Sequence record: NC_041871.1
DNA from: Escherichia phage Murica
Length of the DNA stretch: 64,000 nucleotides
Strand: one strand, 5' to 3'
A program made the translations under genes and the position numbers. Positions 31,026 through 47,099 of this stretch are shown piece by piece. Position 1 is the stretch's first letter, and each line of letters begins with the position of its first letter. The notes beneath the pieces were generated by a model that worked only from the letters and a program-made list of their open reading frames with translations, was not told where the DNA came from and did not search any database.

Positions 31026-32349
31026 TAAGTTCTTCTCTTTTCTTTTACCGAGTAATTCGGGTTTTCTGTTCTCTTCGGTTTGAAGGGGTATGGAGATACA
31101 CCTGAGTGAACATGGTGAACAACCGAACATTTGGCTATGGCATTAGCATGGCGAAGCGGACGGGTGACGAAAGAGGGGCCGGAGGACACCAGTCACTGCC
31201 ATATGATATATGGGTGATAACCTGAAGAGTCTGAATAAGTGTTTAAGTACCAGTCAGAGGAAAAGGTGAATGGTAGCCGAAGGGGGAGGGGGGTTTCTTG
31301 TATCTTTAATTTGTATATTATGTATACACTCGTAAACCAATCTCATCTGAATCTGTTTACCACACAAAGTAGATAGGGACAAATATCACCTATTAAACTT
31401 GAATTATTTATAGAAAATACCACAACACCACTTAAGTCTTTGATTTTACACACAAATCCTACAGATATTCAACCTCTATATTTAACATATTCATAACATA
31501 TTCCATACTCTACCTGTCTGATCAATTTACCCAACCACATCCTCCATATTTTCCCTGTCTGTACCACCCCTGCCCCGCCGGGAGTCCCGTCATATCTGGC
31601 TTTCCAGCAAATATCACACCCACAAATATCATTGCCTGAAGAGGGTTTCATCCCATAGTACATGCCTTACCTGAAGAGCGCTTCATACACCACGTAAATT
31701 TTTTAATTTACCCCCCCTCCCCGCCGCCGGAGTGGTCGGCTTTTCCCACACAGGCCTGAAGAGTCAGCCAGAAATATCTGAACAGGTCCAGTTATACCAC
31801 GATTTTGACCTGACCGACAGGAGTGCTGCCAGGCGGACGGAATGGGAATACTTCTCATTCTTATAATAATTCTCAAATATCGAGGCAGTGAGGCAAATTA
31901 ATAGGTGAGGCCGTTCACACAGTGGCACAACATTTGCAATCTATTTTGTGAGGGTGAATGAGAATACCTATCATTGTGAGAACTGTTATCATTACGGGCA
32001 ATTTAACATAATACCCATTATGCGCACCACTGGCGATCCATACAGGGATTGATAACATGAGTTACAGTTTACGCATATAACAATCATATTTCTTACTATT
32101 TGTGTGGGATATAGTTAGCAGCCGATAGATTAGATATTGACCTGTGGACTTCCAACCGTCTAGACGTCTAAACGCCCACACAACAAGGATTATACATACA
32201 TTACTGAATGTAAACAGGGCCGCAAAAATGCTACCATACCAGATTGTAAATTTTTCATGCAGCACTTGACAAAGAGGAGAAAAACTTGTCTGACACAATA
32301 TGACATACTGGGCACATTAAACACACTTTAGACTTAATTGACATGCCTG

Positions 32350-34641: not shown

Positions 34642-34670
34642 ATGTTACCCCACCCCATGGCAGATGTCAA
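34642..34670 (-). promoter_or_regulatory. sigma70-like promoter (- strand)
   Basis: On - strand TTGACA (34665-34670), 17 nt, TAACAT (34642-34647). Confidence 0.4.
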
Positions 34671-34693
34671 CGGTTTTTATAGTTCTTATATGA

Positions 34694-34718
34694 CAGGCAG
34701 GCCTGGTGATTGTCTCCC
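34694..34718 (-). repeat. copy of GGGAGACAATCACCRGGCCTGCC motif
   Basis: 24/25 identical to 44166-44190 in inverted orientation. Confidence 0.7.
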
Positions 34719-34805
34719 CCTGTTCCCAAGTGCCGCCCGTTTAATAAGAATAGCAAAAGGGGCCGAACAAGTCAACCCCAAAATCAGTACCAAAACACTT
34801 TTTAT

Positions 34806-43525: not shown

Positions 43526-43723
43526 TTATTTTTTATTAAACCAGTGGTTGATCTGGCCTTTTGTCAGGGCGCAACGATTAAGCTGTTGCCGGGTATAGCT
43601 CTGACCACGACGGAATTTATAAAGGCCTTGCCCGTTGTTGATGGTTACATCCACCCGGCAAATCACTTGATCCGTGACCACCTGGCGAGTGTTGCGACGT
43701 ACTTTGATTCCGTAGGCGTTCAT
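43526..43723 (-). CDS. hypothetical basic protein
   Basis: 65 codons. Confidence 0.45.
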   Translation of the reverse strand: MNAYGIKVRRNTRQVVTDQVICRVDVTINNGQGLYKFRRGQSYTRQQLNRCALTKGQINHWFNKK

Positions 43724-43967
43724 GATTTTTTATCCTCTTTGTTAATTAGTGCGGTGTTGTTCACCTTGCGATAATAAGAATAACAAGAACTGCCCGAGCT
43801 GTCAACCATTATGTAAAATTATTTTTTTGGGTAGAATTCTCCAGCCGCCACCCCTGCCAGGTTTGCAAGCTTTCACTCTCCCACCTGGTCAGTTAGGTCC
43901 TGCTAGGGCTGGCCCCGCCAGGTTGCAGCAGTTGACGCACTATGTTAGAAAAATTTTTTGAAAAGTG

Positions 43968-44098
43968 TTGACAACGGCCCCACCAGGTGGCACAATATAC
44001 CTATCGAAAGGACGGCAGGCACCGGTGACGGGGGAGACAACCACTGGGGATGGGCGCTGCATAAAATGAGAACGGTTATCATTATCATTTAAAAATTT
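43968..44098 (+). promoter_or_regulatory. promoter plus GC-rich motif unit A (candidate small RNA locus)
   Basis: TTGACA (43968-43973), palindrome CCACCAGGTGG (43980-43990), GGGAGACAACCACTGGGG (44032-44049), then AAATGAGAACGGTTATCATT. Confidence 0.35.
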
Positions 44099-44111
44099 AT
44101 GCAAAAAATCC

Positions 44112-44230
44112 TTGCTTTCTTTGTCCTGTGTGATACTATAATAACAAGCCGGGGCAACAGGGGCCGGGAGACAATCACCGGGCCTGCCCGTTATTCTGCA
44201 AACGAGAATGATTATCATTCAAAATTCTAA
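44112..44230 (+). promoter_or_regulatory. promoter plus GC-rich motif unit B (candidate small RNA locus)
   Basis: TTGCTT (44112-44117), TATAAT (44137-44142), GGGAGACAATCACCGGGCCTGCCCG (44166-44190), then AAACGAGAATGATTATCATT. Confidence 0.35.
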
Positions 44231-44824
44231 ATGAGAACTCCTCGCATTTAATAAATTTAATTAGCACGCTAATTACACTCCGTAACAATTTACTATAAAA
44301 TAGTATCCACTAAAATATTCCCATATAGAAATTTTAAAAATCCATTTCTGAAAACGAAAAATCGATTTCGTCCCTAAAAATTTCAGGCCTAGATCCGGAA
44401 CGATTTCCAGAAAATCCGATTCAGAAAACGAAAAACAGATCGAGTACTGAGAAATTTATCGAGAAAAATTTTCAGAAAATCCAAGCCCTGAAATGAAAAG
44501 TAGATCGAGTACCTGGAAAGCTGCACCGCAACTTCAAGATAGTGGTTAGATTGTTACCATAGAAGGTCAAGGGTAAGTGGAGGAAGTTCTAGTAGAGGGA
44601 GGTTAGCATGTGTGGGAAATCTATAATGGTGGCCTGGAATATGGTGCAAACGATAGGATGAGTTATTCAGCTTGTCGCGCCTACTCTGAAAAATCCATTT
44701 TAGTTTTCGATCCATTTTCTGATTTTCTAAGAATTTTAAAATATCCGGCCCGGTGAAATATCAAAAGGAGGAAATCCATTTTAGAAATCCTCCTTATACT
44801 TGATATGCCAGGAATTTTCAAGTA

Positions 44825-45154
44825 TCAGCTGTCTTTGTTTTTAGGTTTGTACATGCGCAGAGGTATGGTCTTTGTAACATTCCATTTCCTCAACCCTTCC
44901 CAGCTCCAGTTGTGGGCGTGATACCCGGTTATGCATGCACTGCTGGCGTGATCATAAGCATAAGAGAACGCTATGTGCACCAGGTGGGGCCAGTCCTTCC
45001 ACGGCTGTGGACCGTAAGCCTTTCTCCAACACCGACACAAACTAATTGTCTCAAGAATAGGGAGAATAACAATTCCATATACCACCACCAGAATGGTCAG
45101 TGCAATGATTGTCAGGAAGACATACCCTGCAGTTGAAATGATGATCTCTGTCAT
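44825..45154 (-). CDS. small membrane protein
   Basis: Hydrophobic IISTAGYVFLTIIALTILVVVYGIVILPIL. Confidence 0.5.
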   Translation of the reverse strand: MTEIIISTAGYVFLTIIALTILVVVYGIVILPILETISLCRCWRKAYGPQPWKDWPHLVHIAFSYAYDHASSACITGYHAHNWSWEGLRKWNVTKTIPLRMYKPKNKDS

Positions 45155-46640: not shown

Positions 46641-47099
46641 TCAACACTTTTTGTACTCTACTACAACCACATCAATATCTGTGGTTGCAAGATTAATTAC
46701 ATCTTCTACATGTTCCCACTTTAGACCGCCAATACCGCATCCAATTTTAGGAATGTAGAACGGCAATGACACACCTTTGAATACCTCGTTGACTCGCTCA
46801 AAACCTTTCATTATTGAGAAGTATTCAGCATTGGGCCCTGGGTAGAACTGGGTATACAGGTTGATTCCATATACGACCCTGTTCTTGGCAAAATGCTCCC
46901 AACAAGAAAACATACCCAGCTTGTCCAGATTACCATAGGCAGTCTCTTTGTCGGCTGCCAGTGCTTGAGGGAACTCACGGGCAATATCTTTCGCTATGCC
47001 TGCACCCATTGTATGAAAGCAGTTACAACCGTGGATCAGGTGACCAGCACCGCTCTTAAAAAGGGAGATTAAATCTCCCGCTACAGTATCAATAATCAC
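46641..47099 (-). CDS. macro domain protein (ADP-ribose binding / hydrolase fold)
   Basis: HGCNCFHTMGAGIAKDI fits macro NxxxxxxxGxGVAxAI motif; YIPKIGCGIGGLKWE fits second glycine-rich IGxGxxG motif. Confidence 0.75.
   Translation of the reverse strand: MIIDTVAGDLISLFKSGAGHLIHGCNCFHTMGAGIAKDIAREFPQALAADKETAYGNLDKLGMFSCWEHFAKNRVVYGINLYTQFYPGPNAEYFSIMKGFERVNEVFKGVSLPFYIPKIGCGIGGLKWEHVEDVINLATTDIDVVVVEYKKC

Follow-up and report, generated by a model that had tools for sequence, protein, structure and literature searches.

Origin systems that are activated by transcription or primed by a transcript include the T7 primary origin, T4 oriF and oriG, ColE1 RNA II and the activation of the lambda ori; in T7, the tandem promoters 1.1A and 1.1B are combined with an AT-rich region. 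Iteron origins, such as those of lambda, P1, P4, F and pSC101, carry at least three direct repeats in an AT-rich region free of open reading frames (ORFs), with host-factor sites interspersed. To our knowledge, no replication origins or early regulatory circuits are known for the rV5-like, PVP-SE1-like and phAPEC8-like therapeutic phages. The subject here is a non-coding locus in an rV5-like phage, Escherichia phage Murica (NC_041871.1). A 64,000-nucleotide stretch of its genome, called the window below, was analysed; within it lie two adjacent units on the + strand (43968-44230), each consisting of a promoter, a GC-rich block with the core GGGAGACAAYCACYGGG, and a tail, AAYGAGAAYGRTTATCATT, which an earlier note made from the letters alone had proposed as small RNAs.

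What the sequences show directly is the repeats, the conservation across genera, the promoter footprint, + strand pairing with some covariation, the Fur-family identity of the tail, and a recurrent order of promoter, RNA element, Fur box or boxes, and iterons. The remaining parts of our account, namely transcription itself, occupancy by Fur, a roadblock effect and origin function, are inferred; the account as a whole, that the units are Fur-gated leader cassettes feeding an origin-like region, is put forward tentatively and at somewhat less than an even chance. In the literature searched, the combination of a leader RNA, a host-factor operator and iterons is described nowhere, nor is the RNA family itself, and no relevant account of Fur sites in lytic phages turned up. 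The parts of the locus are as follows, with RNA B denoting the element of unit 2 and its orthologues, and R1 a covariance model.

43968-43996, + strand: promoter of unit 1, TTGACA-17-CACAAT with extended -10 TG (promoter scan, 10/12 matches)
44015-44060, + strand: predicted structured RNA domain of unit 1, a diverged RNA B paralogue (fold z = -2.28; weak R1 match at 44024-44052, 13.4 bits, E 0.2)
44064-44086, unstranded: candidate Fur box 1, AAATGAGAACGGTTATCATTATC (25.6 bits with the phage-box matrix; 16/19 to GATAATGATAATCATTATC, box at 44068)
44113-44142, + strand: promoter of unit 2, TTGCTT-19-TATAAT, with an A/T-rich tract before it (read from the sequence; position kept in other genera)
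44142-44199, + strand: unit 2 RNA, the RNA B orthologue, predicted outer stem around GGGAGACAAUCACC (R1 45 bits, E 3e-10; cross-genus blastn; fold)
44200-44222, unstranded: candidate Fur box 2, AAACGAGAATGATTATCATTCAA (32.4 bits; 15/19 to the Fur consensus, box at 44204; holds the 17-mer found before metal-uptake genes)
44229-44251, unstranded: weaker third Fur-like box, AAATGAGAACTCCTCGCATTTAA (17.9 bits)
44319-44520, unstranded: three imperfect direct repeats, or iterons (repeat search; starts at 44319, 44393 and 44458; 62-nt unit)
44521-44680, + strand: G-rich stretch (51 G, 22 C; GC skew +0.40), directly downstream of the iterons

Like the T7 primary origin and its kind, the locus has tandem promoters directed into an AT-rich, repeat-containing non-coding stretch and then a G-rich segment, and the phage family encodes a T7-type primase-helicase (PMC3606486), but the promoters of the locus are of the host sigma-70 type, it adds a conserved 5' RNA domain, candidate Fur operators and 62-74-bp iterons, and its origin role would be by analogy. 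With the iteron origins it shares the three or more direct repeats, the AT-rich ORF-free setting and interspersed sites for a host factor; unlike them it is without DnaA or integration host factor (IHF) sites, no initiator gene was recognized beside it, and the host-factor site is of the Fur type. The tails resemble established Fur boxes in matching 15-16 of the 19 consensus positions, in forming a 15-19-bp palindrome, and in containing a 17-mer that stands before iron- and zinc-uptake genes, but the candidate boxes of the window lie in a non-coding control region of a lytic phage, coupled to a structured RNA and iterons, and at about +50 to +75 rather than over the -35/-10. The putL and putR elements of phage HK022 offer another parallel, since here too a folded nascent RNA is predicted after host-type early promoters, in non-coding DNA and in multiple paralogous copies in different transcription units; put measures ~70 nt and has two stems in a V shape (PMC9378689), whereas the window element is ~55 nt with one closing stem, and units 1 and 2 head no operon. 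Homology to put was rejected after putL had been extracted from NC_002166 and compared by eye, no similarity being seen. Finally, U-bearing variants of the element can form a short apical stem closing a GACAA pentaloop, as in the boxB of P22 and lambda nut sites; GACAA is the P22 boxB loop sequence, a likeness offered as a lead only. In contrast to nut boxB, the closing pairs are lost in GACAAAC variants and no N-like protein was identified, and no boxA or nut-like site was found at the units within one mismatch.

The units, their promoters and their relatives

From about 33 kb to 64 kb the ORFs of the window lie on the - strand, as do both genes flanking the 1.1-kb gap (43724-44824) that holds the units and is without a credible ORF, so that the units do point against their neighbours as the earlier note had described; its promoter, GC-rich core and tail were likewise all recovered. 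The core GGGAGACAAYCACYGGG occurs at 44032-44048 and 44166-44182 on the + strand and, with one mismatch, at 34702-34718 on the - strand, three occurrences against 0.21 expected by chance and a count reached in 0 of 100 shuffles. The existence of a third, oppositely oriented copy is thereby upheld, but its 25-mer agrees with that of unit 2 at 23 positions (the mismatches are at positions 15 and 24), not at 24 as first given. The tail AAYGAGAAYGRTTATCATT is counted five times against 0.14 expected; it is exact at 44065 and 44201, and two weaker neighbouring copies lie at 31957 and 31975. Scanning the 64 kb with R1 returned just three copies, at 45, 21.6 and 13.4 bits.

The unit 2 promoter was not listed by a scan for 16-18-bp spacers because its spacer is 19 bp. 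When twelve orthologous upstream regions were anchored at the RNA B start, the -35 TTG, the -10 (xAtaxT) and the start context (C)ACAT(A/G)GC proved to be kept, as was the distance from promoter to element, while the 16-17-bp spacers are unrelated between genera. Hexamers kept between diverged spacers are the footprint of working sigma-70 promoters, and the + strand promoters read in the earlier note are thus borne out across genera. In several genera a motif TTTGTAAAG-N3-GTAAAG immediately precedes the -35 of the RNA B promoter (at 1440-1475 in L004 and 1128-1150 in L111; related genomes and contigs are given by working labels of this form) and also that of the promoter which follows the cassette of the third-copy type (L161 and L087); it may be an UP-like or activator site.

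A sensitive blastn search with 43940-44260 matched 262 records. Beyond Vequintavirus the alignment is confined to the unit 2 segment (~44164-44255), which shows 72-88% identity amid diverged flanking DNA in Phapecoctavirus, Mydovirus (Klebsiella and Proteus phages), Seunavirus (PVP-SE1), Certrevirus, Henunavirus, Avunavirus and Plateaulakevirus (Aeromonas), so that the search of other phages suggested in the earlier note does recover the motif. The match lies, in all fetched records, inside a 0.6-1.4-kb ORF-free gap between - strand genes. Along the + strand these gaps contain a promoter with an element called RNA A, a promoter with RNA B and one to four palindromic boxes, followed in some phages by a third promoter, and then by three ~75-bp iterons and, in several (ABPH49, Av-05), a purine- or G-rich stretch. 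The units described earlier are real, and they form the upstream end of a larger conserved module of promoters, RNA, Fur boxes and iterons. RNA A is absent from the window, where unit 1 occupies its place. In the other genera it appears just upstream of RNA B as a promoter-driven conserved element, GCCACCCCACGGCG...GGCGGGGCUAAC...GGAAGGUGGAUCGCCGGUAG; RNAalifold gives it 17 pairs, three of them with compensatory changes, and it has no Rfam match. Its positions are:

L004 1330-1425
L005 1375-1470
L111 1020-1115
L110 1025-1110
L112 1035-1115
L113 965-1050
L003 1310-1400

No intrinsic terminator follows unit 1 or unit 2: there is no terminator-like site in 43968-44330, none was found between unit 2 and the iterons, and 44215-44330 folds at merely -10 kcal/mol. 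Discrete RNAs of 80-150 nt, as the earlier note had envisaged, are for this reason not predicted from the sequence, and transcripts would be expected to continue into the three iterons and the G-rich stretch.

The GC-rich block as a probable RNA domain

The GC-rich block is moderately supported, by fold and comparison, as a ~55-nt + strand RNA domain that begins at the transcription start and whose outer stem would close a variable interior presenting the conserved GAGACAAnCACC. This apical sequence is invariant in the three paralogous copies and in many genera. The stem pairs the 5' end of the transcript with the sequence immediately before the tail (...UGCCYGYYAU); in unit 1 it joins GCAGGC.CCG to UGGGC.GCUGC around the core at 44032-44048. 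On the sense strand the fold z values are -2.31 for unit 2 and -2.0 for the third copy, against about -0.5 for the antisense (unit 2: -0.47). Orthologous stems read AUAGCGGG/CCCGCUAU in PBES02, PcCB7V and L086, AUGGCG/CGUCAU in L053 and Mt1B1_P17, AUGGCA/UGUCAU in ABPH49 and AUGGCG/UGUCGU in L016, and paralogues of the third-copy type have GGCAGGC/GCCUGCC (L131) and GCGGGCA/UGCCCGC (L161). Over the 8-bp outer stem, 88.5% of positions can pair among 13 orthologues and 85.3% among 25 distinct sequences aligned to the model, against 24-56% for slid partners. Column pair 7-53 is AU in nine sequences, GC in eight and GU in four, column pair 10-50 GC in eleven, GU in five and AU in three, and G.U cells outnumber A.C cells by 25 to 11 on the + strand. 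The structure and covariation check that the earlier note had called for thus comes out moderately in favour of a + strand RNA structure, with 85-88% stem pairing and two compensatory pairs. The inner helices have no common register between copies.

This last feature also bears on another explanation, in which an early regulator or initiator encoded by the phage would bind the GC-rich block as double-stranded DNA; GAGACAAnCACC and TGCCYG, 5 bp apart just downstream of the promoters, would make up this operator, and the stem would be incidental. The core and the 3' strand of the stem are indeed more conserved than any inner helix, the inner registers vary between copies, a position at +25 to +50 would suit a repressor or roadblock, and the core shares AATCACC with the iterons of L015; it also weakly recalls the P4 iteron TGTTCACC, a likeness offered as a lead only. 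Such an operator would not account for outer-stem complementarity that is kept with differing sequences across lineages, nor for the bias of G.U over A.C on the + strand. A single regulator is also unlikely to be common to the widely differing phages that carry the motif, and we consider the operator reading distinctly improbable.

A protein-coding origin for the conservation is almost certainly wrong. The - strand ORF 43940-44218 has an ATG start and 92 codons for amino acids, and FFH2 and ECML-10 annotate it as a hypothetical protein, but it is unannotated in LL12, where the gap is almost empty, and it contains two in-frame stops in the 92.7%-identical relative L071, on which account it is not a conserved gene. 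Orthologous elements differ between genera by 1-nt indels, the third copy is intergenic, and the pattern of conservation is that of an RNA and an operator, not of codons. The stops and indels effectively refute this reading and agree with the earlier opinion that the ORFs over the units are not genes; the annotated ORF is very probably spurious.

No described RNA was recognized at the locus. Rfam gave 0 matches in the window at the gathering threshold, nothing on the units at E values up to 10, and no match at three related loci; ARAGORN found no tRNA at the units or related loci, and did not confirm a tRNA-Met over the orthologous element in OY978796.1 or a tRNA-Ile and tRNA-Lys nearby. Complementarity of the core to the E. 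coli 16S, 23S and 5S rRNA and spacer tRNAs extends to at most 9 nt and is inconsistent between variants, and the window holds no site complementary to the core other than the copies themselves. The motif is a new RNA family, suitable for curation.

The third copy

The third copy lies in an early-gene leader, within the following cassette.

34779-34759 (hairpin) and 34775-34747 (promoter), - strand: terminator-like hairpin with the promoter TTGACT-17-TATTCT in it
34692-34737, - strand: copy 3 of the RNA element (R1 21.6 bits, E 0.001), leader of a 90-aa early gene
34642-34670, - strand: promoter after copy 3, TTGACA-17-TAACAT, rV5 P168 (Table S4, PMC3606486)

The - strand promoter that the earlier note had seen beside this copy is present, but it is embedded in the hairpin, GGGGTTGACTTGTTCGGCCCC followed by TTTTGC. 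The 90-aa product belongs to a PHROG of unknown function. Orthologues of the third copy were found in L131, L146, L153, L161, L169 and L087; the upstream hairpin and promoter are kept in L153, L161 and L169 (Certrevirus-like) and in the Klebsiella phage L087. In L153, L161 and L087 a Fur-like box comes after the RNA, and ~250-300 nt of non-coding DNA then separate it from a promoter and a gene, so that the pairing of RNA and Fur box recurs at two loci per genome.

A place in an early-gene leader is no less compatible with a cis-acting element than with a trans-acting small RNA, and the third copy is thus relevant to two further explanations. The first makes the units independent trans-acting RNAs of ~55-80 nt, with GAGACAAnCACC as a seed or protein-binding loop and a 3' end produced by processing in the AU-rich single strand, by Rho or by a Fur roadblock. 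The placement of copy 3 and its orthologues within mRNA leaders argues against it, as do the lack of an intrinsic terminator or U-tail after any copy, the lack of a target in rRNA (at most 9 nt) or in the window, and the lack of a matching Rfam family. Strong conserved promoters, a 5'-terminal stem that would protect the RNA, the invariance of the apical sequence among paralogues and genera, the presence of RNA A as a second conserved structured RNA at the same locus in other genera, and the likeness of 44231-44318, rich in C and poor in G (17 C, 7 G), to a Rho-loading region are all in its favour, and we rate it as unlikely.

The second is a put-like cis effect, the folded nascent domain making the polymerase resist pausing, Rho-dependent and intrinsic terminators, and protein roadblocks. 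Long non-coding transcripts in E. coli are otherwise exposed to Rho, and a polymerase so modified could cross a long untranslated region bound by Fur or at iterons, as well as early operons. In every lineage the element keeps a short, constant distance to sigma-70 promoters, its covarying stems enclose invariant unpaired bases, copy 3 comes immediately after a terminator-like hairpin, and each genome carries several paralogues, placed in different transcription units like putL and putR of HK022 (PMC9378689). Set against this, there is no visible likeness to HK022 putL in sequence or architecture and no boxA, and the region that would be read through from units 1 and 2 has no terminator except the hairpin at 44766-44797; a put-like function appears quite unlikely.

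The tail as a putative Fur operator

The tail is a predicted DNA operator of the Fur family, and not, as the earlier note had it, part of an RNA unit; the consensus, the matrix and the bacterial contexts all point to this. Scored against the 19-bp palindromic Fur consensus GATAATGATAATCATTATC, the two boxes reach values like those of known ent/fep sites, which score 15-16/19 in the same count, and Fur box 2 contains a perfect 15-bp palindrome, GAATGAT-T-ATCATTC. A matrix made from 18 phage boxes was scanned over the 26-kb ent/fep cluster of E. coli K-12 at a threshold of at least 12 bits: four matches were returned, all within the fepA-fes and fepB-entC intergenic regions, which are classical Fur-controlled promoters.

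The exact 17-mer GAGAATGATTATCATTC is present in ~100 IMG/VR contigs from very diverse phages, often within arrays of two to five similar palindromes, and in at least 120 bacterial genomes, among them cyanobacteria, Paenibacillus, Massilia, SAR86 and Acinetobacter. Most of the bacterial loci (106 of 120) are outside any long ORF (at least 200 aa), usually less than 100 bp from a gene start. When 20 proteins encoded beside bacterial 17-mers were compared with Pfam, 15 were metal-uptake components (five ZnuA, one CobW, one FeoB, two TonB-dependent receptors, four Peripla_BP_2 and two Fe3+ binding proteins). Zinc-uptake genes make up several of these contexts; in the bacteria concerned they are controlled by Zur, a regulator of the Fur family. 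The E. coli Zur box differs in sequence from the box seen here, and the fitting regulator in the E. coli host is for that reason Fur. A Fur-repressed - strand promoter over box 2, TTGAAT-18-CAGAAT, was considered by eye and dropped because its -10-like hexamer is not kept in Klebsiella phages, L086 and L016.

Fur boxes might also serve without any local role, as a decoy: replicating phage DNA would titrate Fur, de-repress host iron uptake and so feed iron-dependent phage enzymes. That Fur boxes in multicopy titrate Fur is well established in the laboratory, as in the FURTA assay; arrays of two to five boxes occur in many unrelated phages, and in the window the high-scoring boxes cluster in two non-coding zones. 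At the locus itself, though, there are just two or three strong boxes, and their position directly after the RNA element is fixed at two loci and in many genera, which argues for a local function. We would give the decoy very little chance.

Iterons and a possible origin

The three iterons, GAAAATCC...CTGAAAAYGAAAA..., are spaced 74 and 65 bp start to start and diverge too far to be detected by Tandem Repeats Finder. GATCGAGTAC forms the end of two of them, and in most of the related genera the iterons end in GATCGAG(A/T)AC. The iteron region is AT-rich (35% GC; 27-35% across 44231-44520), and iterons of like kind are found in all related genera. The G-rich stretch that follows might favour R-loop formation by rightward transcripts. 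A similar purine-rich segment was seen in several related gaps.

The association extends to unrelated phages. Non-coding, promoter-proximal members of the pattern GAGACAANCACCNNNNNTGCC were found in L134 (328 kb), L151 (183 kb), L165 (94 kb), L129 (87 kb) and L137, and the GAGACAAnCACC...UGCCYG family as a whole spans rV5-like phages to 180-350-kb jumbo phage contigs. In L134, L129, L165 and L137 iteron arrays of lineage-specific sequence begin 50-180 nt after the motif, and L137 has five Fur-like boxes besides its iterons. Arrays of Fur-box-like palindromes also lie beside iterons in non-coding DNA of unrelated IMG/VR phage contigs, at these positions:

L015 4550-5000 and 6700-7000
L093 10600-11800
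L067 9050-9700
L107 4600-4800
L026 200-500
L020 2950-3170
L033 5360-5810
L028 1450-1670
L137 1810-2200

Several perfect DnaA boxes (TTATCCACA) adjoin the array in L015. It may be that Fur-type sites commonly form part of origin-like regions in phages. At 1200-1420 of a 347-kb contig, L010, two convergent units on opposite strands lie ~60 bp apart, each with ...CCTG(C/T)CTGCTAT... and then a Fur-like box.

The region is read as origin-like because the RNA and Fur boxes associate with iterons in the window, in related genera and in unrelated phages. In the cassette account favoured here, host RNA polymerase would fire rightward from the sigma-70 promoters of units 1 and 2 early in infection, opposite in direction to the early genes on either side; the initial ~55 nt of RNA would fold, the outer stem burying the 5' end, and the polymerase would next meet the candidate Fur operator at about +50 to +75. 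With iron present, Fur-Fe2+ on the operator would limit read-through and leave a short RNA protected by its 5' stem. Without bound Fur, the polymerase would enter the AT-rich iterons and G-rich stretch or, for copy 3 and its orthologues, the early genes, and origin firing, or the expression of downstream early genes for the copy-3 type, would thereby become iron-dependent. The partner of the apical GAGACAAnCACC could be RNA polymerase (as for put), a phage protein or a target in trans. More broadly, it is possible, if rather doubtful, that this is an undescribed and widespread module, in which a sigma-70-driven structured RNA (GAGACAAnCACC...UGCCYG) and host Fur operators control transcription into an iteron origin and gate both lytic replication and early expression by host iron.

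A number of observations weigh against the cassette account. As to the RNA, covariation is modest, with double changes in just two of the eight outer-stem pairs; some 20 of 500 shuffles (~4%) reach the observed pairing score; single-sequence fold z values span -3.6 to +0.4; RNAalifold found no consensus structure in a mixed alignment of 18 paralogous sequences; and, given the sequence conservation of the stem's 3' strand, part of the signal could be a DNA site. The predicted Fur site is not in the classic promoter-overlapping position, and in the window copy 3 is followed by a gene, not iterons, with its Fur box decayed. Literature searches found no Vequintavirus transcriptome. That the segment is a phage replication-control region with a transcription-activated or transcript-primed origin is a guess by analogy: none of the nine genes around the gap that were scanned against PHROGs suggests a replication function, and DnaA boxes and IHF sites are absent from the window gap and not conserved in nine related gaps. 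Such sites are not obligatory in lytic phages. In the rV5 paper, skew shifts only where the direction of transcription changes, and no origin was located (PMC3606486).

Surroundings of the gap

A megablast search with 43700-44900 matched 120 phage records at 80-99% identity, mostly Escherichia phages; the relatives whose taxonomy was checked (FFH2, LL12, ECML-10, rV5) are Vequintavirus, to which the window thus belongs. Sixteen 'Campylobacter phage' records (MG0656xx) match the 1.2-kb Vequintavirus query, those listed at 94-97%, and look mislabelled. An E. coli 'plasmid' record, CP057073.1 (137,565 bp), is 98.3% identical to a 121-bp unit 2 query and is probably a phage genome; a search of a plasmid collection gave nothing beyond such a mislabelled Vequintavirus genome and bare Fur boxes. 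Two features mark the edges of the gap.

43777-43805, - strand: leftward early promoter, TTGACA-17-TATTCT (promoter scan), the equivalent of rV5 P195A (Table S4, PMC3606486), which restarts - strand transcription at the left edge
44766-44797, - strand: hairpin AAGGAGGA...UCCUCCUU (fold), followed on the - strand by a U-rich run

The hairpin is likely the terminator of the leftward gene 44825-45154 at the right edge of the gap; lying between it and the restart promoter, the segment would be shielded from leftward early transcription. Of the nine neighbouring genes that were scanned, one (46644-47099) matches a phosphatase PHROG and the other eight fall into PHROGs whose function is unknown. Small + strand ORFs on the left side of the gap in other genera are mutually non-homologous, except for the pair in Mt1B1_P17 and Av-05.

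Further Fur-like boxes (13-18 bits) lie at 31838-31862, 31956-31993 and 33421, in or beside an ORF-free zone at ~30-33 kb where the + and - strand gene blocks converge. A + strand promoter-like site there, TTGTGA-17-TATCAT at 31946-31974, overlaps the box at 31956. A 2.6-kb stretch without ORFs has been described at 104013-106618 in rV5 (PMC3606486) and, judged by position, appears to be the same zone.

Significance

The locus is a concrete candidate for an origin or early control region in the rV5-like phages. It also suggests that many lytic phages read the iron state of the host through Fur. Iron limitation is normal in the gut and in infected tissue, and the Fur link, if real, would therefore bear directly on the efficacy of phage therapy there.

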